From NCBI GenBank assembly GCA_016840035.1, contig JAEOTC010000038.1:1-64000 (forward strand): a stretch of 64,000 nt of DNA. The letters are read 5' to 3'. This DNA comes from Candidatus Hodarchaeota archaeon. GTDB taxonomy: Archaea > Asgardarchaeota > Heimdallarchaeia > Hodarchaeales > Hodarchaeaceae. A program made the translations under genes and the position numbers. Positions 43,019 through 55,004 of this stretch are shown here, piece by piece. Each line of letters starts with the position of its first letter. Position 1 is the first letter of the stretch. The notes beneath the pieces are model-generated. The model saw only the letters and a program-made list of their open reading frames with translations. It was not told the origin of the DNA and did no database searches.

Positions 43019-43170
43019 ACAAAGTAAGTTCATGTTTAGAATAAGAATACAACAATTAAGATATTTAATTGTTGAAAATCAAATCCTTCATTAATTCACT
43101 ATCGAATAGAAAATCACAAATAGGAGAGAGTAGATGTGAAATACGCTTCCTTTTGAGGGATGAGATAAAC

Positions 43171-44142
43171 ATGAATGATATAGAATTGCTGCTAGTTTTT
43201 GGTATTACAATACTCATTTCGTCAGGAATTACCTTTTTTATCCTCAGGTATTTCTTTGCTACACGACTGAAAGGTATAGAAAAATCATCTGATACAATCT
43301 CTAAAATATCTGAGGGAATGGTTCAACAATCTAATAGCTTCATTGATCTAATGAAAAACAGTCTTAATACGCTACAGACGGACGTAATGGGACAATTAAA
43401 AGAATTACGGGAAATGTCTCGGGATCTTCAGACTACTCAAAAAGATACTCAGAGCTCTTTCGAAAAATTTGTCAGTTTAGTACGTATGCGTCCCCAAACA
43501 AAAGGCGAAGTAGGAGAAGGTATCGTACGTTGGGTATTAAGTTCATTACCAGCAAATTCATGGAAAGAGCAAGTAACAATCTCCGGAGGACGGGTAGATT
43601 TTATAGTATATTTACCACCAGATCAAGAAAAAGTTCTCATTGATTCAAAATTTAGCTTTCCAACAGAATTATTAGAATCCGATAATCTAGTTGCTGCTGA
43701 CCAACAAACCATCAACAAAATTAATCGAGGGATAATCAAGAGAAGTAAAGAACTCGAGAAATATTTAGTCCCAGAGAATACAAATATCGGTTTTTTACTC
43801 ATGTACATTCCAGATATACTATTTTCCTACCTATCTGATACCACATTTAAAGAATTGACAGGGAAGAAAATTATTCCAGTTAATGTGTCAGGTCTTTTAT
43901 CAACTTTATTGATAATTTCCCGTCAAATTCAAGTATTTCGAATTGGCGAGGCTATTTCGCGTTTAGAATCAATCAAAACAACTTTCGACAGTGAAATTGA
44001 TGCTATTCAGAAGATAACTAAAACAAGTAAAGGTCAACTTCAGAAAGCACTCACAAACGTCGAAAAAATCGATGTTCAACTTGATTCCACTCGACGGAAG
44101 ATTTTTAGAGAGTTTGGATTAATTGAAGAAGAGAGTACTTAG
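43171..44142 (+). CDS. RmuC family protein
   Basis: TM helix, coiled coil, KGEVGE, RVDFIVYLP, IDSKF, LMYIP; start moved to ATG 43171. Confidence 0.82.
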   Translation: MNDIELLLVFGITILISSGITFFILRYFFATRLKGIEKSSDTISKISEGMVQQSNSFIDLMKNSLNTLQTDVMGQLKELREMSRDLQTTQKDTQSSFEKFVSLVRMRPQTKGEVGEGIVRWVLSSLPANSWKEQVTISGGRVDFIVYLPPDQEKVLIDSKFSFPTELLESDNLVAADQQTINKINRGIIKRSKELEKYLVPENTNIGFLLMYIPDILFSYLSDTTFKELTGKKIIPVNVSGLLSTLLIISRQIQVFRIGEAISRLESIKTTFDSEIDAIQKITKTSKGQLQKALTNVEKIDVQLDSTRRKIFREFGLIEEEST

Positions 44143-44159
44143 GATTAAAGAGAAGGCTG

Positions 44160-44957
44160 GTGAATTTAATGAGTAATTTGAAAGATAAATCAAAAATTTG
44201 TCCATATTATCAAAAACCATGCTTATTAGAGAAGTGTCTTGCCTACAGTGGTGAGACTTGCCTAATTATTCCTTTGGGGAGATTAGAAAGGGAAACTACT
44301 ACAAAAGTGCCTGTAATCCTCAAGACTAAATCCATAAAAGAATTAGCAGAAAAACTTGCTGATTATTATTTGGAAAAATATCCCGATGGAGAAAATTATC
44401 GATATACTGACACTTCCCTTTTCTGGAGCAATAGAATTGGAGTGAAAGAAATCTATAACCTCCCTTCGGACATCCAAGAAAAGATTCAAGATGTGGAAAG
44501 ACTTGCAGAGGACATAACAGAAGATAGGAAAATCCCCGAAGAATTAAAGAGCCAAAAACCTGAGAAGATAGCAGAAAACATGGTCAAATGGGCAGAAAAA
44601 AATTTTGATATCACTAGATATGTATATTTTAGAAAATACTGGGGATCCAAAGGATTGCCCGAATCTTATTATTTTTCAGATAGATATCGGCCGAAAGCTG
44701 AAAAATGTGAGTTACTGGCTGAACAAAAATTAGAGGAAATTCGTGAAAAGAGAAAGAAGGAGAAAAAAGAGAAAGAGAAACAGCAAGCATTAGCTGAAAT
44801 CGATAATATCATTAAATGGTTAAAAGAGAAACGGTTGGTGAAGCTCTCAAAAGCGAATTTAAAGCTTTATTTTTCTGAAATAGGTATGAAGGTCTCTCCC
44901 ACTAATCGTCAGAATGTATACATAAGGGTAAATGAAATTTTAAAACAAGAAAAATAG
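44160..44957 (+). CDS. hypothetical protein with Cys-rich N-terminus
   Basis: CPY..PCL.EKC..Y...C; internal repeat LAEKLADY..FWS / IAENMVKW..YWG. Confidence 0.7.
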   Translation: MNLMSNLKDKSKICPYYQKPCLLEKCLAYSGETCLIIPLGRLERETTTKVPVILKTKSIKELAEKLADYYLEKYPDGENYRYTDTSLFWSNRIGVKEIYNLPSDIQEKIQDVERLAEDITEDRKIPEELKSQKPEKIAENMVKWAEKNFDITRYVYFRKYWGSKGLPESYYFSDRYRPKAEKCELLAEQKLEEIREKRKKEKKEKEKQQALAEIDNIIKWLKEKRLVKLSKANLKLYFSEIGMKVSPTNRQNVYIRVNEILKQEK

Positions 44958-45013
44958 GGGGCTAAGTGATAAAAGTGATAGACCTAGAAATTTATAGCGA
45001 TGGAGGGTATTAA

Positions 45014-45874
45014 TTGAGGAAAACTCGAAATAAGAGAAGTACAAGTTTACTATTAATTTATATTGCCATCAATCTTGGTTTAATTCTCCCAATGGGAGTA
45101 TCAAACGCACTAACCACGAATAGAACACAGAATGAATATACACGAACATTTACTTGTAATAAAGACGCGTATGTAGACTCTTCGAACCCAACTTCAAACT
45201 ATGCTAATGCAGATTTAGAGGTTTCAAACTCATCATATCGAGCAAGACGTTCTTATCTATCCTTCGAAATTCAAGACCTACCTTCAGATGCTGATATAAA
45301 AGAGGTAACATTCGGATTAAGCGTGAAATTCTTGCCTTATGATGACCATACCGTTCCATTAGATATTTGGAAAACAACTTACTTTGATGAAGATATCGTT
45401 ACTTGGGAAAATTGTCCTCAAAGAACTGTTCTCATGATACAAGTCGATATTGCTGAAAATAAACGCTGGAGCATTCCACTGGAAAACCATGGCATTACTG
45501 GAAATTTAAATCTCTATATTTGCTTATCCACCGATCTCGACAACTCTGCACCCATTACATTCGATTCTAGAGATGATATGTGGAATCCACCAAGAGTAGC
45601 AGTTACTTTCGAAGCATTATCCATCGATGAAAGTCCAAATGGAACAGTAGACTTAGTGATATTCCTAATTTTACTTGGTCCAATTGGAGGAATTGGATTA
45701 GCAATATTTCTAATGGTGAGAAAATCAAATAAGAGAAAAACAAGTTTTAGTATTGTATATCAAGAACCGAGAATTTCTCAAAAATCCGTAACTATAGACC
45801 AATTTTGTGGCCAATGCGGTGCTCCTCTGGATTCGACGAATGTTTTCTGTCCGTCCTGTGGGAAGAAACAGTGA
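45014..45874 (+). CDS. DNRLRE-like domain, TM helix and zinc ribbon protein
   Basis: DAYVDSSNPTSNY, RRSYLSF, VTWENCP, FDSRD..PRV; FCGQCG..FCPSCG. Confidence 0.8.
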   Translation: MRKTRNKRSTSLLLIYIAINLGLILPMGVSNALTTNRTQNEYTRTFTCNKDAYVDSSNPTSNYANADLEVSNSSYRARRSYLSFEIQDLPSDADIKEVTFGLSVKFLPYDDHTVPLDIWKTTYFDEDIVTWENCPQRTVLMIQVDIAENKRWSIPLENHGITGNLNLYICLSTDLDNSAPITFDSRDDMWNPPRVAVTFEALSIDESPNGTVDLVIFLILLGPIGGIGLAIFLMVRKSNKRKTSFSIVYQEPRISQKSVTIDQFCGQCGAPLDSTNVFCPSCGKKQ

Positions 45875-45914
45875 GGATATACTTCTTCGTGAGAAGTTAA
45901 AACTGGGTGAAATT

Positions 45915-47036
45915 TTGAATAGAACTAATCTCATGAAACTATTTCAGCTCGAGGATAACCAGGAAATTTTTGATTTAGCCCTTACTCCAAAATCGTGTGG
46001 TGGAGGTGACGAATTCAAACTTTTAGCCCTTTATGGGGATAAAATCATTGACTTAGCTCTGATCATTGATTTTTCAAATCAAGGATTCACAAATACGGGA
46101 GTAATCTCACCTGCTATTGATAGCTTTCATAATGAAGATGCTCTCAACGCACTAGGAAGATATCTAGAAATCGATCATTTGATGAATCCACTTGATAAAT
46201 CCAAACCGATCTCAGATGGTGATGTGAAAGAAGGAGTAGAAGCTCTTATAGGAGCAGCATATCAAAAACATGGATTAACCACATGTATCAAAATTGTTCA
46301 ACGTCTATACGAACAATCGGAATCTTTTTCTACAAAACCGGGAGAGGAAAAAGCTACTATCCTGACGGAAAACTTGGTAGGGATGTTACAAGAGTGGTTA
46401 GCAAGCCAAGGCCTTGGAATACCTGTTTATGAAGGGATACGAGTTGGAGGAACTAATGACAATCCATTATGGAGATGTCAAGTTTCATTTGAATATCATG
46501 GAGAAAAAGTCAAGGAGAAAAGTGATATTTTTTCCAATAAAAGACTCGCTAAGAAGAATGCAGCCCAGAAAGCATTGGTTGCATTAGGAATAAGGAAAGA
46601 TAATGTAAGCAGAGTTTTTGGGTCGATTCAGGAGGTGAAAATTCCTGAAACAGCAACTCAATCTCTCCAAGAACGAGAAATTCTCTTTACCAAAGGAGGG
46701 AGGGGAGGGCATTTTATCACAGGAGAGATACAACTAACAACTCAAACGGGTGAAACTGTCTTAGAATGGGCAGAAAAGAAGATAAAAAAGAATCCTTATG
46801 GAAGCTTGATTCTCCTAAGTGCACGTTTAGAGGAAATAAGTGGATCTTCTTGGTCAACTTCCTTGGAGGATCAGGAGCTAATTCTACTAAATATTGTTAT
46901 TGAAGACATGCCCTATTTTGAAATAGGAAAAGGAAAGTCAAAAACAAAAGCTAGAAAAGATGCTGCGCAAAAAATAATAAGATCATCTAATCTTATCAAA
47001 TGGATTGCTCAAAAATATTCAACCATACTAATCTGA
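45915..47036 (+). CDS. RNase III-like nuclease with two dsRNA-binding domains
   Basis: LALYGD, EGVEALIGA; dsRBD motifs LQEW..NKRLAKKNAAQKAL and GKGKSKTKARKDAAQK; start inferred from GGTGA SD. Confidence 0.8.
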   Translation: MNRTNLMKLFQLEDNQEIFDLALTPKSCGGGDEFKLLALYGDKIIDLALIIDFSNQGFTNTGVISPAIDSFHNEDALNALGRYLEIDHLMNPLDKSKPISDGDVKEGVEALIGAAYQKHGLTTCIKIVQRLYEQSESFSTKPGEEKATILTENLVGMLQEWLASQGLGIPVYEGIRVGGTNDNPLWRCQVSFEYHGEKVKEKSDIFSNKRLAKKNAAQKALVALGIRKDNVSRVFGSIQEVKIPETATQSLQEREILFTKGGRGGHFITGEIQLTTQTGETVLEWAEKKIKKNPYGSLILLSARLEEISGSSWSTSLEDQELILLNIVIEDMPYFEIGKGKSKTKARKDAAQKIIRSSNLIKWIAQKYSTILI

Positions 47037-47042
47037 AAATGT

Positions 47043-47114
47043 AAAAATTAAGGAGATACCATTTGATTGGTAATTTTCATACTAAACTTATGTATGAGCC
47101 CTTTGTAGCGATTT
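47043..47114 (-). repeat. displaced tfb 3'-end copy 5 (most decayed)
   Basis: AAGGAGATACC..GGTAAT..GAGCCCTTTGTAGCGATTT aligns without gaps to the tfb end; the stop codon is lost. Confidence 0.8.
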
Positions 47115-47374
47115 ACCAAGTAACTCCAATCACTGTTACTCGTTTAAGTCAGAAGGGTACAATATTTTCTTCCTGTGTGGAGAAACAATGGAAGATAAAA
47201 AAGTAAATAGCAATTAGCAAAAAAGGGAGAATTCTGTTGAGAATGTGGAAATTATGTTTTAAGATGGAGTTGAAGTAATCGCAAACAGAGAAGACCAGTT
47301 TAAGGGAGAAATATATTGATCCGTTTCCCGTACTCTTAGCATTAAGCATTCTACTAATTGTTATATATATAATA

Positions 47375-48115
47375 ATGCTAATTAATCCTTCAATTTATGA
47401 TCTACTAGAAATGAACAGATCAAATCCCTTTAGTATATTAACTAGTCTATTAATCCATGATCTAGATAATTCAGCACATTTAAGCGTGAATTTGGGGGCA
47501 TTATGGATTTTTGGTTATATTGTAAATATCCAGACAAATCGATTTCGAATGCTAATAACTTTCTTCGTATGTGGTGTATTAGCAAATATATCTACGGTGA
47601 TTTTTTCAGATTTAATAAACCACCTATTTTCTACTACATTCACAAATTGGGCTGTTTCTTCTAGACATTGGATCGGAGAGAATTTACGTGTTGTTCCATC
47701 ACCAAACGGAGGAGGAGCTTCAGACGGATTGATGGGGCTAGGAGGATTTGCTCTCGCTTTAGCTATTGACTTTTTAATTATTAATTTACATGAAGCTTAT
47801 AGAATCAGCCGTAATTCAACCAATAAATACCTAATAATACTAATTGATCGTCTGAATCAGTCAATTGTGGATACCTGTGTAAATTGTGTTGGGATTCTAG
47901 GAATTTTAGTTCTTTGGGCAGGATTAATTATGGATCTTGAAATGTTTTATTATGTTTTAACTTTTAATTACGCAGCAGCAAACGGAGAACTGTTATCTTA
48001 CCCGACATCAGACGGGCATCCGTTACTAGCCCATGCTTTTGGAGGATTGATAGGATTTATCATCGGGATCTATTATACTCGGTTCTTTCAAAAGGGGATA
48101 AGAAACTCCAATTGA
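47375..48115 (+). CDS. rhomboid family intramembrane serine protease
   Basis: H....HLSVN, GASDG, AHAFGGLIG. Confidence 0.82.
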   Translation: MLINPSIYDLLEMNRSNPFSILTSLLIHDLDNSAHLSVNLGALWIFGYIVNIQTNRFRMLITFFVCGVLANISTVIFSDLINHLFSTTFTNWAVSSRHWIGENLRVVPSPNGGGASDGLMGLGGFALALAIDFLIINLHEAYRISRNSTNKYLIILIDRLNQSIVDTCVNCVGILGILVLWAGLIMDLEMFYYVLTFNYAAANGELLSYPTSDGHPLLAHAFGGLIGFIIGIYYTRFFQKGIRNSN

Positions 48116-48185: not shown

Positions 48186-50042
48186 TCAGAAGGATTGGAA
48201 TCGGTTCCTTAAGACTGCACGAAGGTTTCTGAAAGAGCGAAACAGCTGCAAATTCGGAAGATGATGTTGATTGAACATGGCACGATTATCAAGAATTAAC
48301 CCTGTGGCTTGATCTACTTCAGAGCGAATAGCACGCCCCAAACACTGGCGGACCTGTGTGAAGAGATAGCGTTCTATTAACGTCCATTTAACAAAATGGA
48401 GATGACGATAACGGTTAAAATAGAGTCTATAAAGCAAATTGTACACCGGAGTGGGTGCTGGAAAGGGTAAGCCTATTAAAATCACCATTCGTACACGACT
48501 TCGGCCAGTTTGAGGATCTCGAACTTCGACTCCTTCACTAAACTTCCCGCCATAAACTGCAAGCACCACACTTGGGTCCCCATTCATTAATTCAGAGAGG
48601 AATGTAATCTGACCCTTTCTAGGTTCACGATAGAGAGACAGTTTTTCATTCAAATGCTCTTCTAAAAGTGGAAATAAGTCATCAAGAAACTCATAGGACG
48701 GGACAAAAACCCAGGTATGATCAGGAATTTCAAGTGCGACCTCCTTCACAGTTTTTGCACACCAACGCAGGAACTTCTTTGTACGATTACGATGAGAACT
48801 ACTCACCTGCGGATGAATAAATGCAGCCACAAGTAATTGCTGAATACGCGATTTAGGAGTAGGAACGTGGTGCAAATGGTACATATTCCACGGTTTTTTT
48901 TTTAATCCATAATAATGCGAGTAATATTTGAGATATTGAAAAGTGGCAGAAAACAGCACTGTCCGGGAGAACTGCCGATTCACATATTCAAAGATTTTCG
49001 ATGGATAGGGATCGAGTTGAACTAATCCTTCCTCCGTGTTCACCCAATATCGGCCTTGACGCTCAACAAAAGAGCGCACAGCCAGTAAAGCTTCTAGATC
49101 GAGAGGAGAAAGAGAATATCGAATACCTTTCTGATGAAGGAACGAATCGATTTGAGCTAGATAAGAACGATCAAGAGTTGGGGGACGTTTAACATACCCA
49201 TACTTTCGCTGGCATAGATTTTGCAGAATTTGCACAACAGGAAAAGCTCCGATTGACTCAACCAACGAAAGTTGTTTCCGAGTGACTGTAGCCTCTATTG
49301 TTGGCCCAAAATTGTGAGCTTCATCAATAATAGCGAATCTATGACTCCAACGAAAACCATAATCATGCGCTTTCCAGGTGAATCGAGACAGGGAGCGCTG
49401 GAGAGAGTGAGATTCCAAATATCCCTGCGGGAGTAATATAATATTAGCCTGAGGAAGCAAACGTCGGATGACTTGAGCAGGACAGCCATAGGGAGTGAGA
49501 AGCTCCTGAAAACCGGCAAATGATGAAGGACAGTGCTGGAGGGATATTTGAGGAAGAATCTCTCTTAGAGAGGATAACGGTAAAAAACGAGTTTTTTTCT
49601 TTCGAGGACAATGAAAACAGTCATTTTCAGGAGGTAAAGGACAGAGATCTTTGCTAGCGATCAAAGGAAGTAAGGTTAACTTGTCTGCCGGAGGGTTAGA
49701 GTAATATTCTTTCAGAGTTTTGAGAAACACTGATCTAAGTTGTGCTTTGGTTTTAGAAAAACACCAGAGTTGATATTCACCGGTCTTCATCAGATCCCAG
49801 AAGGCAGAAAACGCGGTGACGGATTTACCAAACCCAGTGTAGGCATTAATCGCAATTCGGGGATAAGCAGCAATTAAAGCTAGGACCTGTGCCTGACCAC
49901 GACGAAAGGAGGGAAAAGGAAAATGCTGGCGAATTTCAGGGGGCAATTCTTCATCCTTGAAAGACGAATGAGCCGCACCTGCTTTAAAAGCATCTGAATA
50001 ATAGATAAAAATTCCCTCAAGAAGGTTTTCCCGTATACACAT
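48186..50042 (-). CDS. Rad3/XPD/DinG family Fe-S helicase
   Basis: FRRGQ, AYTGFGKS, Cys cluster, IIDEAHN, SAT, GKFSEGV, GLPFP, QCLGRAIR. Confidence 0.9.
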   Translation of the reverse strand: MCIRENLLEGIFIYYSDAFKAGAAHSSFKDEELPPEIRQHFPFPSFRRGQAQVLALIAAYPRIAINAYTGFGKSVTAFSAFWDLMKTGEYQLWCFSKTKAQLRSVFLKTLKEYYSNPPADKLTLLPLIASKDLCPLPPENDCFHCPRKKKTRFLPLSSLREILPQISLQHCPSSFAGFQELLTPYGCPAQVIRRLLPQANIILLPQGYLESHSLQRSLSRFTWKAHDYGFRWSHRFAIIDEAHNFGPTIEATVTRKQLSLVESIGAFPVVQILQNLCQRKYGYVKRPPTLDRSYLAQIDSFLHQKGIRYSLSPLDLEALLAVRSFVERQGRYWVNTEEGLVQLDPYPSKIFEYVNRQFSRTVLFSATFQYLKYYSHYYGLKKKPWNMYHLHHVPTPKSRIQQLLVAAFIHPQVSSSHRNRTKKFLRWCAKTVKEVALEIPDHTWVFVPSYEFLDDLFPLLEEHLNEKLSLYREPRKGQITFLSELMNGDPSVVLAVYGGKFSEGVEVRDPQTGRSRVRMVILIGLPFPAPTPVYNLLYRLYFNRYRHLHFVKWTLIERYLFTQVRQCLGRAIRSEVDQATGLILDNRAMFNQHHLPNLQLFRSFRNLRAVLRNRFQSF

Positions 50043-50817
50043 GAGGAGTCAAAGGTTTGGAAGCTTTTTTCTTCCTCTTTTTTGACCGAAATTCTCGAAA
50101 ATAACCCCTGAATTCTACCACTTGATCATAGATCTTGTGTGTCCACGAATTTTGCCAGAAACGAATCCGATGTTCTTTGTGTTTTAATTTCGTAATATAA
50201 CAGAAATAGGGAAAGGCCTCCCAGGGGTGGGTTTGAAGCAACTTATCGAGATCCCCACGAAGAGTAACGAGAAAACCCATCTGTTTAAAGGAAGCGAGGG
50301 TAGCAAAACCCCTCAATCCACTCGGGGGAAGAAAACAGGTATCATATCCGTCAAAAACTAAAGCTGTAAGCATAGGATGTCTAAGAATAGGTTTGAAAAA
50401 TTCACGGTCGAAACTCTTGGCAAATAAAGTGTGTTTATCAATTCGACTTAGATAAGAGGTGGGAAGTTGCTTTTGAGATCGGAAATTAAGGACACGAAGA
50501 ATACGTTGAACCTGATAATCCTCATTGAAATCGTAATACAAAATTTGCCATGGTTTTGGACTGCTCAAGAGGCAGGAGGCAACGAGTTGAGCAAGAAACA
50601 GGCTTTTTCCAGCGTTTTCCGGACCAGCAATGATAATGGGCCATTGCCAGAACCAGCCACCTCGCCATGTTCGATCCAAAGACTGTAAGTACGTAGGGAT
50701 CGGTTTACGTGGAGGAAGGGAACTATCGCACGGAACAGCATGTTTAATAACTTGGGATAACAAATCATCTAAAGACTCGGAGTCATTCCTAGATGAGAGA
50801 GGTTTTTGAGAAACCAA
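50017..50817 (-). CDS. divergent RecA/RadB-like ATPase
   Basis: IPTYLQSLDRTWRGG, GPENAGKS, LYYDFNE, LVFDG. Confidence 0.75.
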   Translation of the reverse strand: MVSQKPLSSRNDSESLDDLLSQVIKHAVPCDSSLPPRKPIPTYLQSLDRTWRGGWFWQWPIIIAGPENAGKSLFLAQLVASCLLSSPKPWQILYYDFNEDYQVQRILRVLNFRSQKQLPTSYLSRIDKHTLFAKSFDREFFKPILRHPMLTALVFDGYDTCFLPPSGLRGFATLASFKQMGFLVTLRGDLDKLLQTHPWEAFPYFCYITKLKHKEHRIRFWQNSWTHKIYDQVVEFRGYFREFRSKKRKKKASKPLTPHVYTGKPS

Positions 50818-50916
50818 AAATATACACCTTCCATTTACTAGATATCGGGTTGTCCCCTTTTATATCTGAAAAGATCTAGAAAATTGGAAGAGGACCCAAG
50901 CTCAAGTACTTTTGAA

Positions 50917-50923
50917 TATATAA
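50917..50923 (+). promoter_or_regulatory. putative TATA box for the structured RNA / LAGLIDADG transcript
   Basis: TATATAA just upstream of the hairpin-dense region; a divergent TATAAAA lies at 50858-50864 on the minus strand. Confidence 0.45.
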
Positions 50924-50944
50924 GGGAGGGGCAGAATCTAGTAC

Positions 50945-51815
50945 GGTTCTCTCTTTAGTACCATTCAGGCAGCTATAGTAGGTGAGAATTGTGAATGACC
51001 ACTCACAATGATCTTCACATACGTAGCGAAAAAGTGCTAGTCGCTAGCATTTGCCTTGCACTTGCTTAAAGAGGCAGGTGGATAAACAAACACGGTTGAA
51101 AACCGATGTTGGCAAGTGAAACACGAGAAAGTAAGAGGAAAACTATCCAGTTATGGCAAACTGGAAAATTTAGTCATATTTTGTTCGTGAATGAACTGGC
51201 CCTGTTTCCTCAGAAGAATCAGGTAGATAAGGTTCAAGAATCAGATCAATTAAACCTGGTTCAAGGTACGGATACGAAAACACAAAGAACGCGGAATCCG
51301 CAAAGACAAACAATAACCCCAATCCAATACCCACCAGTATACCCTCTTCAACTGGGAAATACTGGCCTTGTCGACTCTCCAAGGTGGATCGAGTCACACG
51401 ACAAGCAATTCTTTACGAAGGAAACGAAAACCCCACACGAAGGGAAAATGGAACAATACCCAAAAGAACAACACCAGCGTTTAATAACAAAACAACCATA
51501 TTCGACTTACACTCACGGTCAGGAAGAGACGCGGAAGTGTGTGTCAGTCAAGCGGAGTGTATCCACTCAAAACCATATCCAACTACCACGGGAAAGCATC
51601 CCTCCCAAGGGTGCTAGGCCTCAGAAGAGATGTGTCGTAAGACAGGTCTCTTCTGAGGATCCCACGAATATGGGCCCTTGTCATGGTGACATGACCAGGG
51701 TAGGTAGATACTCTACCCAAGGTGAACTGACGATGTCACAAACCAACCCTCTTCCTACGGAAGGAGGGGCGCAGGCCCCACTTCCTGACCGTGTCATCAC
51801 GGGGCAAAACGCCCC
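50945..51815 (+). ncRNA. candidate large structured RNA
   Basis: More than 15 consecutive hairpins with G-U pairs on the + strand, GUAA and GUGA tetraloops, A-rich linkers. Confidence 0.6.
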
Positions 51816-53214
51816 ATGGCCGGTCGTCCCCGAAGAGTACACCTTCCAGGAGGTGTCTCTTTGGGAGTTTACCAATCTCTATGTCCTGTTGGGCAAAGAC
51901 GATTGGATTACCCTGTCAACATTGTTGCAGGGAATCAATCTCTCGGCAATAAGTCGAGAGATTGGGATAGGCGTATCCGTCCTATCCAACATTCGAGAAT
52001 CCCCCGATCAAACGATCGCGGTGGCGAATCTCGAACATCTCTGCCACTATGCAGGGATGGATCTTTCACAGGTCGAGCGAAACGCGCGAGCGGTTCGTTT
52101 TTCTAAACGAGGTGACCTGGAGTACCTCAAATTTCCATTCGTCATGGATATTTATGCCTGGCGAGTCCTTTGTCACATTGCTGGAGATGGTAATGTGCAT
52201 TTTCGCAAGTATCCTGATCTCCGGTGGATTCAACTCCCCGAGCATCAGGATCCAATGCGGACTCTTCTATCCAATCTGAGTCGTGATCCAACAATTGATT
52301 ACGAACGGATGATATATCCTAAGACATTAGCTTATGCTATCTTGGGAACCATTCGAGGGATCACATTCCGTGACCTTCGGACCCCTTCATTCATACAATT
52401 TGTACTTGATTTACCCAGTCGCTATCGTGATTGGAAAGTACAATTCCTTGCCGCTTTCATCGTAGATGATGGATGTATTGGTGAGGACATATCTATTTCT
52501 CAGAAGGATGAACGAGTCCTTCGCCTCATCATGCAACTATGTGATCAGTTGGGATATGATCATTCCCCGCTATATCCAAGTAAGCGTGATGGAGTAAATA
52601 ACTTTCAGTTACGTCAGGAAGGAATTCAAGCCTTCTTATATGATGTAGCGCCCCTTTATGCACGTGATCCACTTCTAGGTCTCTGGCATAAGCATACACA
52701 ACTCTTAACTGTTGCTAGTTCTTTTTCTTCAGAAAGAAAACTAGATCAAAAGTTATCTGTTCATGTGTGCACCACTATCCTTCAGATTTTGGAGGATGGA
52801 ACTATCTATTCCACGGATGAACTGCGTGTTCATCCAGCTCTTCAAGTTTATCTTGAAGGGTACCCATCCTATGTTTTAAACAGAAGATTGGGAATTCTCC
52901 ATCGTTCTATGAATCTCATTCATGAGGACATCAAGAACAATGGAACCTCTTACCGGCCTAAACGCTGGTATGTTCCTCGTTGTACTACTTCAGAACACTT
53001 GATTCAAGTGTTTCATGCGAAGTACAACAATCGTGCTCATCCACAATCCTACAAACGTAGGAACATTACTTCTCAGATGGTAGAGGACGCCATTGAGGAA
53101 CTTAGTGCGCAGGGGGTCAAACCTAGTGCACTAAATGTCTCTCGTTTCATAGGGTGCTCGAAAAAGCAGCTCTATAAACGAAAAGACTTACGGGTGTACT
53201 TCATTGGTAAATGA
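51733..53214 (+). CDS. freestanding double-motif LAGLIDADG endonuclease-like protein with HTH domains
   Basis: VLCHIAGDG and FLAAFIVDDG; N-terminal XRE-like HTH (LSAISREIGIGVSVLSNIRE); C-terminal HTH; GGTGA SD at 51721 (frame open from 51106). Confidence 0.75.
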   Translation: MSQTNPLPTEGGAQAPLPDRVITGQNAPWPVVPEEYTFQEVSLWEFTNLYVLLGKDDWITLSTLLQGINLSAISREIGIGVSVLSNIRESPDQTIAVANLEHLCHYAGMDLSQVERNARAVRFSKRGDLEYLKFPFVMDIYAWRVLCHIAGDGNVHFRKYPDLRWIQLPEHQDPMRTLLSNLSRDPTIDYERMIYPKTLAYAILGTIRGITFRDLRTPSFIQFVLDLPSRYRDWKVQFLAAFIVDDGCIGEDISISQKDERVLRLIMQLCDQLGYDHSPLYPSKRDGVNNFQLRQEGIQAFLYDVAPLYARDPLLGLWHKHTQLLTVASSFSSERKLDQKLSVHVCTTILQILEDGTIYSTDELRVHPALQVYLEGYPSYVLNRRLGILHRSMNLIHEDIKNNGTSYRPKRWYVPRCTTSEHLIQVFHAKYNNRAHPQSYKRRNITSQMVEDAIEELSAQGVKPSALNVSRFIGCSKKQLYKRKDLRVYFIGK

Positions 53215-53250
53215 AGTCACTCCCATTCCCTTCTCTTTTTTTTTCATAAC

Positions 53251-53838
53251 TCAAACTTGATACGGAAGACTAGTTTCATCAAGTTTTACGATCTCATTTC
53301 CACTAATTGACCATGAGAACCTCTCACATGCTTCTTTGAAAACAACATCTGTTACTAGAAAATCCAGAATTCCTGAATCTTTACTAGAATCAAGGATTTT
53401 AACTTTTTTCCTTCGGGTCCACTCACGAAGTATTTTGATATCCTCAGTTAACTCCATAAGTTTTTGGAGAATCTCATCAAGAGGACGACATACATCAATT
53501 GCATATTTAAACGAGATGTAAAAGTGAATTGGTGTGCGAAACAAAGAGACTGGAGATTCTTGAGTAAAATGGTTTTTAATGGAATTTTCCACAAATCTCG
53601 CATCTTGAAGAGAGAGGGGGTTTTTTAGAGATCGAGATCCGTCATTATTCTTTTTGATTTGCACAATTACTTCTTGAACGAAGTCCTGGTTATTTATTGA
53701 AGGAAATCCATCAAAAATTAGTCTTTTACTTGTAAAATCAGTATAGTTTATTTGTGTGTATCTATCCTTGATTGCAAGAGGTGTATCTGAATAATTTTGA
53801 TTTTTAATCTCATTAGGGTTTTGTTCATCTTCTTCCAC
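53251..53838 (-). CDS. hypothetical protein
   Basis: 195 aa ORF with GGAGG SD. Confidence 0.7.
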   Translation of the reverse strand: MEEDEQNPNEIKNQNYSDTPLAIKDRYTQINYTDFTSKRLIFDGFPSINNQDFVQEVIVQIKKNNDGSRSLKNPLSLQDARFVENSIKNHFTQESPVSLFRTPIHFYISFKYAIDVCRPLDEILQKLMELTEDIKILREWTRRKKVKILDSSKDSGILDFLVTDVVFKEACERFSWSISGNEIVKLDETSLPYQV

Positions 53839-53969
53839 ATATTTACCTCCTTAGAGTCAATAAACGTGAAGGATTTTTAGAAACCCAAGTTCATTAGATT
53901 GTTAAATCCTAACAAAAAAGAAGAACATAATGAAATTAAGAAAAAAAGAATCCAAGCAATTATTATAAT

Positions 53970-53981
53970 AAAAAAGAAAGG
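53970..53981 (-). terminator. T-rich terminator of tfb
   Basis: CCTTTCTTTTTT just after the tfb stop; a similar tract is kept in each repeat copy. Confidence 0.55.
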
Positions 53982-53990
53982 AGATCCCGT

Positions 53991-55004
53991 CTAGACGGTA
54001 ATCTCGATACTTAGCTTGCGCACGAGCTCTTTGTAGCGATTTCTCACGGTAACTTCGGTAACGTGAGCGACCTCTGATATTTCCCGCTGTGTCCGTCGTT
54101 CTCCGTTGATTATCCCGCTGATATAGATTGCTGCGGCTGCTAGGCCGGTTGGGTCTTTTCCTGCTGTCAATCCTCCGGCTTTTGCGCGTTTTAGGATTTC
54201 TGCGGCTTTTCGTTGACAGACTCCTGATAATCGTAATTCTGTCCCAAACCGTACCAGATAATCTATGGGGCTTGCGAGGGGGATATTCAGGTATAATTCC
54301 CTGAGTAATAAGCGGTAACATCTGCCCAGTTCTTTTTTTGTGATTCGTGATTCTTTTGCGATCTCATCGAGTGTTCTGGGTACCCGGCGTACGCGTGCGG
54401 ATGCATAGATGGTTGCTGCGACCATCGCTTCTATGGAGCGTCCTCGTACTAAGCGTTTTTCTATGGCTTTTCGATAGATTATTGCTGAGGTTTCTTTTAC
54501 ATTGCGTGGTATTCCGAGTTGTGAGGCTAATCGATCCATTTCTGACATGGCGAATGCCAGATTTCTATCCATTGAGCTATGGACTCTTGTTCGTATTTGC
54601 CATTTTCGTAATCGATAGATTTGTGCTCGTCGTGAGGCTGTGAGTTTGTTGCCAAACGTATCTCGGTTTTCATATCCTATAATTGTTGATAAGCCTTTAT
54701 CATGTACTGAAAATGTGCTAGGTGATCCTACACGACTGCGTTTATCGCGTTCTTCGCTATTGAACGCACGCCATTCGGGTCCTTCATCTATTAATCGTGT
54801 TTCCAGTACGTAACCACATTTTTCACAGATTAGTTCGCCTCGATTTTCGTCGGCGACGATATCTGTGGATCCACAGTTTTTACATTCGAGGATTTCTTCC
54901 TCATCATCTACCTGGCCTTTTTTCTGTGGTTTTGCTTTTGCTTCTTTCATAAGTGCCATTCCTGAGCGTTCCTTCTCAAACTTGTGATTGCCTGGTCGGG
55001 GCAT
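53991..55004 (-). CDS. tfb: transcription initiation factor B
   Basis: Zn ribbon, GPEWRAF, RLRKWQ, GRSIE, GKDPTGLAAA, TQREISEVAHVTEVTVRNRYKEL. Confidence 0.98.
   Translation of the reverse strand: MPRPGNHKFEKERSGMALMKEAKAKPQKKGQVDDEEEILECKNCGSTDIVADENRGELICEKCGYVLETRLIDEGPEWRAFNSEERDKRSRVGSPSTFSVHDKGLSTIIGYENRDTFGNKLTASRRAQIYRLRKWQIRTRVHSSMDRNLAFAMSEMDRLASQLGIPRNVKETSAIIYRKAIEKRLVRGRSIEAMVAATIYASARVRRVPRTLDEIAKESRITKKELGRCYRLLLRELYLNIPLASPIDYLVRFGTELRLSGVCQRKAAEILKRAKAGGLTAGKDPTGLAAAAIYISGIINGERRTQREISEVAHVTEVTVRNRYKELVRKLSIEITV

Follow-up and report, generated by a model that had tools for sequence, protein, structure and literature searches.

How does an archaeal chromosome come to carry a stack of unrelated genes behind a single conserved gene? 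The question is raised by a 64,000-nucleotide (nt) stretch of DNA from a Hodarchaeales (Asgard) archaeon, called the window throughout, in which a series of inserted cassettes lies behind the transcription factor gene tfb. Hodarchaeales are an archaeal order often placed closest to eukaryotes. The cassettes are marked off by displaced copies of the tfb 3' end, which we call tails. The one nearest tfb contains the block of interest (48186-53214), which encodes a LAGLIDADG-type nuclease, an XPD-like helicase and a RadA-paralog-like ATPase. An earlier note on this DNA had proposed that these three parts and an RNA form an engine that captures DNA at tfb. With moderate confidence, we conclude that the nuclease is a free-standing homing-type enzyme of a selfish element specialised on the tfb 3' end and comparable to fungal mitochondrial mORFs; that the helicase and ATPase often accompany it as an accessory pair; and that the RNA is the nuclease's own messenger. 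Judging from locus comparisons, the nuclease probably drives the insertion of cassettes behind tfb.

The descriptive claims of the earlier note held up. The ATPase gene overlaps the start of the helicase gene by 26 nt, and both diverge from the nuclease open reading frame (ORF) across a 288-nt spacer. The block is richer in GC (0.41-0.47 over 48-53 kb) than its flanks (0.32-0.37), and its cassette is the closest to tfb, bounded by the resident tail and by the first of five displaced tail copies (Table 1). The nuclease is indeed free-standing, with neither a Hint domain nor a flanking host exon in its ORF.

The nuclease and its place behind tfb

By its predicted structure, the 702-amino-acid (aa) ORF encodes an I-DmoI-like, free-standing, double-motif LAGLIDADG homing-type nuclease with extra helix-turn-helix (HTH) modules. 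An AlphaFold2 (AF2) model of residues 222-702, with a predicted local distance difference test (pLDDT) score of 91, comprised a Cro/C1-type HTH, two LAGLIDADG domains and C-terminal helical or HTH modules, the alpha-beta-beta-alpha-beta-beta-alpha topology being present twice. Its best Foldseek matches were I-DmoI, PI-PfuI and PI-TkoII (E 2e-5 to 2e-4). Both LAGLIDADG helices end in acidic residues (HIAGDGN, D361; FLAAFIVDDG, D454/D455), and the model thus keeps both catalytic Asp residues that the earlier note had wanted placed in a structure. The GDG and DDG motifs are invariant in the family; in detail, across 38 sequences the first three positions never varied and D455 was at least 90% conserved. 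Pfam LAGLIDADG_3 was matched by 18 of these 38 family members (best E 5.9e-6), and the window nuclease itself had no Pfam match and no significant sequence match among PDB chains. With a ratio of nonsynonymous to synonymous substitution rates (dN/dS) of 0.15, against 0.74 in the N-terminal extension, the core is, on these estimates, under purifying selection.

The family numbers about 49 members in 5.8 billion proteins, and every member with a taxon name comes from a Heimdallarchaeota/Hodarchaeales or Promethearchaeota assembly. Its distribution is patchy within one GTDB genus, where 10 of 21 other species had a match, four of them by fragments only; none of 61 genomes from other genera of the same class had one. 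No relatives were found on IMG/VR contigs, and we rejected a viral origin on that ground. The family falls into two deep clades. Its tree mostly parallels that of tfb, with one clear, supported conflict (L048).

One metagenome-assembled genome, G052, holds two nuclease-tfb loci, on C137 (L001) and C49 (L024), with nucleases from the two deep clades; either the bin is a mixture of strains or there are two target copies. Short nuclease paralogs of about 410 aa (L029:9101-10330, L026:9308-10588, L028:728-1969) have neither the N-terminal extension nor the RNA structure. In three species an LPG_synthase_TM-type membrane gene follows them immediately in the same orientation, and a tblastn search at E up to 1e-3 found no duplicated 5' end of that gene beside them.

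The nuclease gene lies tail-to-tail with tfb, at the head of the cassette stack. The order in the window is tfb, its tail, orf195, the nuclease and, at the far border of the cassette, the first displaced tail. Among 18 informative loci, those with enough downstream DNA, the nuclease gene converged on tfb in 16 (the window, L001, L002, L003, L024, L027, L042, L043, L044, L046, L048-L052 and the P0024 contig); the tfb product is 92-99% identical in amino acid sequence across loci. Four further genomes (G064, G051, G054 and G061) retain only the last 26-70 nuclease codons, beside tfb or a displaced tail. In G061, three tails stand in series, each followed by a nuclease 3' remnant, the strongest sign that the units of the arrays entered as nuclease-bearing elements. 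G049 provides an empty site, with tfb, one tail and then a metallo-beta-lactamase gene, and G054 has the G049 site plus about 1 kb containing a nuclease remnant and a duplicated tail segment. Tail copies above the usual paralog count were found only in the genus that has the nuclease. With synteny, remnants and an empty site as its comparative basis, the tfb-targeting reading appears well supported.

The tails themselves point to where the element would enter. The 5' ends of displaced tails cluster 60-69 nt before the stop codon (16 of 36), with none clearly beyond 69, and fall within a 21-bp pseudo-palindrome that encodes HVTEVTV, a symmetry read straight from the sequence; the inner ends are ragged. 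Displaced tails still read as TFB ends, and their differences from the resident end are mostly synonymous. The succession of replacement tail, nuclease and displaced tail recurs in L001, L002, L046 and L051. In L001 the displaced tail resembles the window/G049 type, as the mORF model predicts; in the window, by contrast, it is the resident tail that comes nearest to G049 (92-93% nucleotide identity).

This layout has a precedent in fungal mitochondria, where mORFs, endonuclease ORFs that are often of the LAGLIDADG type, occupy the 3' region of a conserved gene and bring a replacement for its C-terminal segment. The native C-terminus is left downstream as a dead copy, and the hybrid genes made in this way include atp6 of Allomyces and atp6, atp9, cox2 and nad3 of Glomus (PMC3630166). 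The tfb locus is built alike: the nuclease ORF directly follows a working replacement 3' end, and the native end stands displaced further downstream. The tfb element differs in its setting, an archaeal chromosome with tfb as the target, and in having a convergent, separately promoted nuclease gene rather than an in-frame fusion. It also drags along kilobases of cargo and forms arrays of up to six or more tails, and the inserted tfb tail does not clearly stand out as foreign beside those that were displaced.

In our proposal, tfb alleles that lack the element would be cleaved by the nuclease inside the pseudo-palindrome that encodes HVTEVTV, some 60-70 nt ahead of the stop codon, a step that we infer purely from sequence. 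An element-bearing donor would then serve as the template for recombinational repair, which would bring in a replacement tfb tail together with the convergent nuclease gene and adjoining DNA. The old tail would be pushed downstream and, with each such shift, repeated invasion and decay would build the cassette array. The helicase and ATPase, an element-specific operon, may raise the efficiency of repair or homing, and the dense folding of the messenger would most likely help to control or insulate the expression of a gene that is convergent and potentially toxic, rather than serve target recognition. That insertion leaves the old tail behind, as the earlier note had supposed, agrees with the displaced tails, which mark serial insertions, with the empty site of G049 and with the fungal precedent.

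If the nuclease does drive insertion, Asgard archaea would have a recombinase-free route for stacking foreign genes (defence-like genes, transport genes and nucleases) downstream of an essential gene, by a device known until now mostly from fungal mitochondria. The enzyme would then also offer a new scaffold for long-site nucleases (HTH, LAGLIDADG, HTH), one whose natural target lies in a conserved gene, and the element may be a mobile one that carries its own RAD51-paralog and XPD-type helpers. We found no published description of a nuclease-tfb system in the literature searched.

Several findings weigh against a nuclease that homes into tfb. The resident junction, CACGTTACCGAAGTTACCGTG, and the empty-site allele of G049 are one base apart in the 21-bp candidate site, which leaves the self-immunity of the donor without an explanation. 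The silent substitutions that the earlier note expected to protect the donor allele are thus not evident, and we saw no protective substitutions in the resident junction relative to the G049 allele. The nearest displaced tail in the window is the most degraded, and tail decay follows no simple age gradient. No nuclease remnant was found in the window's four older cassettes, and the contiguous array of G053 is free of any nuclease trace. The G058 homologue, although of the tfb type, lies not beside tfb but upstream of MetE and S-adenosylmethionine (SAM)-synthetase genes; the second unlinked locus is a single 4-kb contig. Since the nuclease tree largely follows the tfb tree, the association may reflect long residence rather than frequent homing. 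Finally, no gene of the region has a lower proportion of synonymous differences (pS) than the nuclease, with 0.43 where neighbouring host and cassette genes reach 0.65-0.74, a value that fits recent exchange by horizontal transfer and RNA constraint alike. Unpaired positions of the leader and extension diverge by 0.30, against a host pS of 0.65-0.71, and may be constrained too.

Table 1. Features of the nuclease cassette and its surroundings, in window coordinates.
Feature	Position	Strand	Evidence
First displaced tfb tail, at the far border of the nuclease cassette; degraded and without its stop	47041..47134	-	Repeat search, nhmmer
Rhomboid-like ORF, extra cargo	47375..48115	+	Pfam Rhomboid, E 4.5e-5
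XPD/Rad3/DinG-type Fe-S helicase, 618 aa, cassette-specific paralog	48186..50042	-	Pfam, PADLOC, motifs
RadA/Rad51-paralog-like P-loop ATPase, 266 aa	50017..50817	-	AAA_25, Walker A/B, AF2 and Foldseek
Divergent spacer, 288 nt: nuclease promoter and ~150-nt structured 5' leader	50818..51105	+	Conserved box, folding
Nuclease promoter, TATA-like box	~50915-50924	+	Homologue alignment
Whole nuclease ORF, 702 aa	51106..53214	+	ORF list
N-terminal extension of nuclease ORF, 229 codons, carrying conserved RNA hairpins	51106..51792	+	Open frame, covarying helices
Nuclease core: Cro/C1-type HTH, double LAGLIDADG (D361, D454/D455), C-terminal winged-helix/HTH modules	51793..53214	+	AF2, Foldseek
orf195, frequent nuclease companion	53251..53838	-	Synteny
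Resident tfb tail, the repeated unit: last ~23 codons, stop, ~24 nt	53968..54063	-	Repeat search, nhmmer
tfb: TFIIB zinc ribbon and two cyclin repeats; presumed target gene	53991..55004	-	Pfam

The helicase and ATPase genes

The helicase matched Pfam Helicase_C_2 (E 1.7e-25) and DEAD_2. It has Walker A and DEAH motifs and, between them, four to five invariant Cys, including Cys134/142/145/171, as in the Fe-S domain of the family. In these features it resembles the XPD-Rad3-DinG helicases, and its match to the TIGR rad3 model was below the curated cut-off. Every genome also has a housekeeping XPD, 33-36% identical to the cassette-type helicase. PADLOC returned only a generic DinG match (E 1.2e-44) for the helicase and a weak mad8 match for the pair, and we rejected assignment to a defence system on this result.

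The ATPase matched Pfam AAA_25 (E 2e-4) and carries Walker A (AGPENAGKS) and Walker B (LVFDGYD) motifs. Its AF2 model was of moderate confidence (pLDDT 63), and the best Foldseek matches of that model were RAD51 paralogs, RadA and DMC1 (E ~1e-10, template modelling (TM) score 0.5-0.64). The earlier description of the protein as RecA-like thus holds at the level of the fold. It is not an ortholog of the host RadA, which lies elsewhere, and its family comprises about 11 clusters at 50% identity (E <1e-10) among 1.84e9 representatives. For all their likeness to RAD51/RadA paralogs, in RecA-core fold and Walker motifs, and to XPD-type helicases, the cassette proteins differ from both in forming narrow, element-borne subfamilies.

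The pair occurs only in tfb-tail arrays. Within the genus, the cassette-type helicase was found in the window's genome, in G052 and on a tail-bearing G059 contig, and the ATPase in the first two of these only. Wherever the gene downstream of the ATPase could be identified it was the cassette-type helicase; two short P0061 contigs show only an unassigned ORF there. Yet only four of the 11 nuclease loci whose upstream DNA reaches ~2.4 kb or more had the pair intact; it adjoins the nuclease in the window, L001 and L046 and lies 2.2 kb away in L042. Traces of it were present in L047, L049 and L003, and the loci with the pair or its traces span both deep nuclease clades. In L002, L024, L043, L044, L051 and the P0024 contig, an intact nuclease abuts tfb without the pair, and one ATPase locus faces a DUF8098 gene in place of the nuclease. 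The co-occurrence of parts suggested in the earlier note thus stands for the nuclease and tfb and holds only in part for the pair, which, being intact in 4 of 11 loci, we regard as an optional accessory and not the core engine. As far as these comparisons go, the pair is array-specific, anciently associated and dispensable, and a helper role in repair is plausible.

Folding of the nuclease messenger

The earlier note had treated an RNA as a separate part of the module. We found instead that the GC-rich stretch in question corresponds to the 5' leader of the nuclease gene and the 229-codon extension of its ORF. Rfam gave no match at the gathering threshold or at E up to 10, and with the extension frame kept open we rejected a separate non-coding RNA gene. 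On the sequence features that follow, the RNA is the nuclease mRNA, with a promoter, a leader of about 150 nt and a translated extension. A box of the AGTATA(A/T)AAGG type stands about 190 nt upstream of the ATG in all nine aligned homologous loci, and from this shared TATA-like box the transcript probably starts near 50950. The extension frame is open in 14 of 17 tfb-linked loci; over 600-690 nt it has not a single stop in most of the tfb-linked homologues, where the other frames have 7-18 (7-16 per 600 nt), and it contains a conserved peptide block with synonymous variation. Otherwise the extension is near-neutral as protein (dN/dS 0.74), its substitutions being even over codon positions. 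In the sister loci L049 and L051, the frame ahead of the core is not open and another one is nearly stop-free, which suggests that their N-terminal extension is frameshifted or differently read.

The messenger is folded along its whole length. In the sense transcript (~51000-53300), every 300-nt segment had a z-score of -3 to -9 against shuffled controls; the antisense strand folded more weakly, and z was near 0 in all neighbouring genes. A second folding test gave z = -7.41, reached by none of 200 shuffles, against -0.63 for the helicase mRNA. The leader, with z -5.1, also has blocks conserved with L001. Dinucleotide shuffles, together with z near 0 in neighbouring genes of equal GC, led us to reject an artefact of composition. 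Strong conserved structure is thus real and spans the whole transcript, although it does not belong to a separate RNA gene.

Selection on this structure is indicated by compensatory changes in 35 pairs among five sequences, compared with 8-11 in slid controls and a count that none of 500 shuffles reached. Dense folding is common to the tfb-linked L001, L002 and L003 and absent from the short paralogs unlinked to tfb. A covariance model of the best-supported domain (R1) detected only its training clade, the closest one, plus one weak match. We therefore found no support for a single conserved RNA architecture, and selection seems to act on dense pairing as such. The end-to-end folded, covarying messenger is a clean archaeal example of selection on mRNA structure. 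As candidate roles we consider regulating how strongly a toxic gene is expressed, insulating it from antisense transcripts that run through from the convergent tfb/orf195 unit, and letting the nuclease bind its own messenger.

Might the RNA instead bring the nuclease to tfb, as a cofactor or guide? LAGLIDADG maturases bind structured RNA, and the conserved, covarying structure lies on the sense strand. We give this idea very little credence. The transcript shares no identical or complementary word of at least 10 nt with the tfb tail on either strand, which makes a guide role unlikely and on which we rejected a guide RNA; the covariance model reaches the closest clade only, with no common architecture; and the region is translated and matches no Rfam family.

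Alternative readings and known systems

The pair invites a stronger claim, that nuclease, ATPase and helicase are a self-contained cut-and-repair machine required for capture. The adjacency of the trio in several loci and the spread of such loci and of traces of the pair over both deep clades, the tiny, array-restricted ATPase family and the plausibility of a RAD51-paralog fold and an Fe-S helicase as recombination mediators are in its favour, but we think it unlikely, given the six loci with an intact nuclease at tfb and no pair, the pair that stands beside a DUF8098 gene, and the RadA and XPD that the host already encodes. Nor are the four parts of the earlier note an obligatory unit, the pair being optional and the RNA neither separate nor a guide. 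A related version, which we consider doubtful while granting it some chance, is that the nuclease joins a RAD51-paralog-like ATPase and an XPD-like helicase of its own in a self-sufficient cut-and-repair kit running an integrase-free, integron-like capture at tfb. The folded mRNA would then be a functional part, either as a ribonucleoprotein partner or by protecting the system from antisense or Argonaute attack.

Two other readings take the nuclease out of the driving role. Circles might enter at the tfb tail by site-specific or Campbell-type recombination, with an enzyme encoded elsewhere and the nuclease as a passenger or a selfish rider on the hotspot. Direct repeats of 70-140 nt of a gene 3' end flanking islands are a classical att signature, small cassettes with a single gene are compatible with it, as is the nuclease-free array of G053, and the pseudo-palindrome could serve as a recombinase core site. 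Such a route is nevertheless improbable in our judgement. No integrase-like, tyrosine or serine recombinase Pfam domain was found in the window ORFs scanned (~33 to ~57 kb, roughly at least 150 aa), nor any recombinase Pfam domain in the scanned ORFs of the G053 array, and we rejected an integrase inside the array. Moreover, a nuclease or its remnant is att-proximal in more than 20 loci, with three in series in G061, and the inner tail ends are ragged. Alternatively, the nuclease could be a domesticated DNA-binding factor, a WhiA-like host regulator of the tfb locus or a terminator or insulator factor, inherited vertically and with no role in cassette gain. A dN/dS of 0.15 over saturated divergence, partial co-divergence with tfb and three extra HTH-type modules in the protein would suit that role. 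We consider it highly unlikely, however, because both catalytic Asp residues are invariant, unlike in WhiA, the distribution is patchy with repeated decay to remnants, and the composition is foreign.

Several known systems share features with the reading that we prefer, a homing-type nuclease specialised on the tfb 3' end. The nuclease resembles I-DmoI and the archaeal monomeric double-motif enzymes in fold (TM ~0.6 over ~187 columns) and in the acids that end both LAGLIDADG helices. It differs from I-DmoI in lacking an intron or intein host, in being about 2.5 times larger, and in its N-terminal Cro/C1 HTH, C-terminal HTH modules and 229-residue, fast-evolving extension. Like the free-standing endonucleases of phages (T4 seg/mob type), with which neighbouring DNA is co-converted, it is encoded by a stand-alone gene that adjoins its presumed target and would carry flanking DNA along; the phage enzymes are mostly GIY-YIG or HNH and have no duplicated gene end and no cassette stacks. 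As in integrons and integrase islands at gene 3' ends, a fixed platform gathers unrelated cassettes separated by a repeated site. In the tfb arrays, by contrast, no IntI or other recombinase was found, the repeats are former tfb coding ends rather than attC hairpins, and the platform enzyme is a LAGLIDADG nuclease.

The remaining observations concern neighbouring genes and the target. In L001, L002, L046 and L052 a homologue of orf195 separates the nuclease from tfb; in L003, L050 and L053 it is found upstream of the nuclease, and in the G053 array it stands alone. Family and atlas searches with orf195 gave no match. The Rhomboid-like ORF is not present in the homologous cassettes of L001 and L046, where the displaced tail lies within ~100 nt of the helicase gene. 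The tfb stop codon lies within a perfect 12-bp palindrome, CCGTCTAGACGG, at window positions 53985-53996. The palindrome is also present in the less decayed of the displaced tails, and it may form a terminator stem or serve as a protein site. ARAGORN found no tRNA within the window, and a tRNA as insertion target was rejected accordingly.

The last 40 residues encoded by the tfb beside the nuclease are 74-88% identical in other Heimdall families. No ortholog of this tfb was found in G057, G062, G063, G066 and G048, of the same GTDB genus (best TFB match 47%), and the target gene itself is therefore patchy within the genus. In another family of the class, outside the nuclease-bearing genus, a second TFB-tail-like match (G012:C146:4576-5079) lies about 300 nt downstream of a tfb gene and may be an independent tail duplication.

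The second cassette of the window (43069-47036) encodes an RmuC-family protein, an RNase III-like protein with a dsRNA-binding motif, and two more proteins without an assigned function, one of them with a zinc ribbon; its RNase III-like gene ends 6 nt short of a displaced tfb tail. In the first cassette of L003 (1082-5136), a Piwi (prokaryotic Argonaute) gene stands beside a truncated cassette-type helicase, which looks like defence-type cargo.

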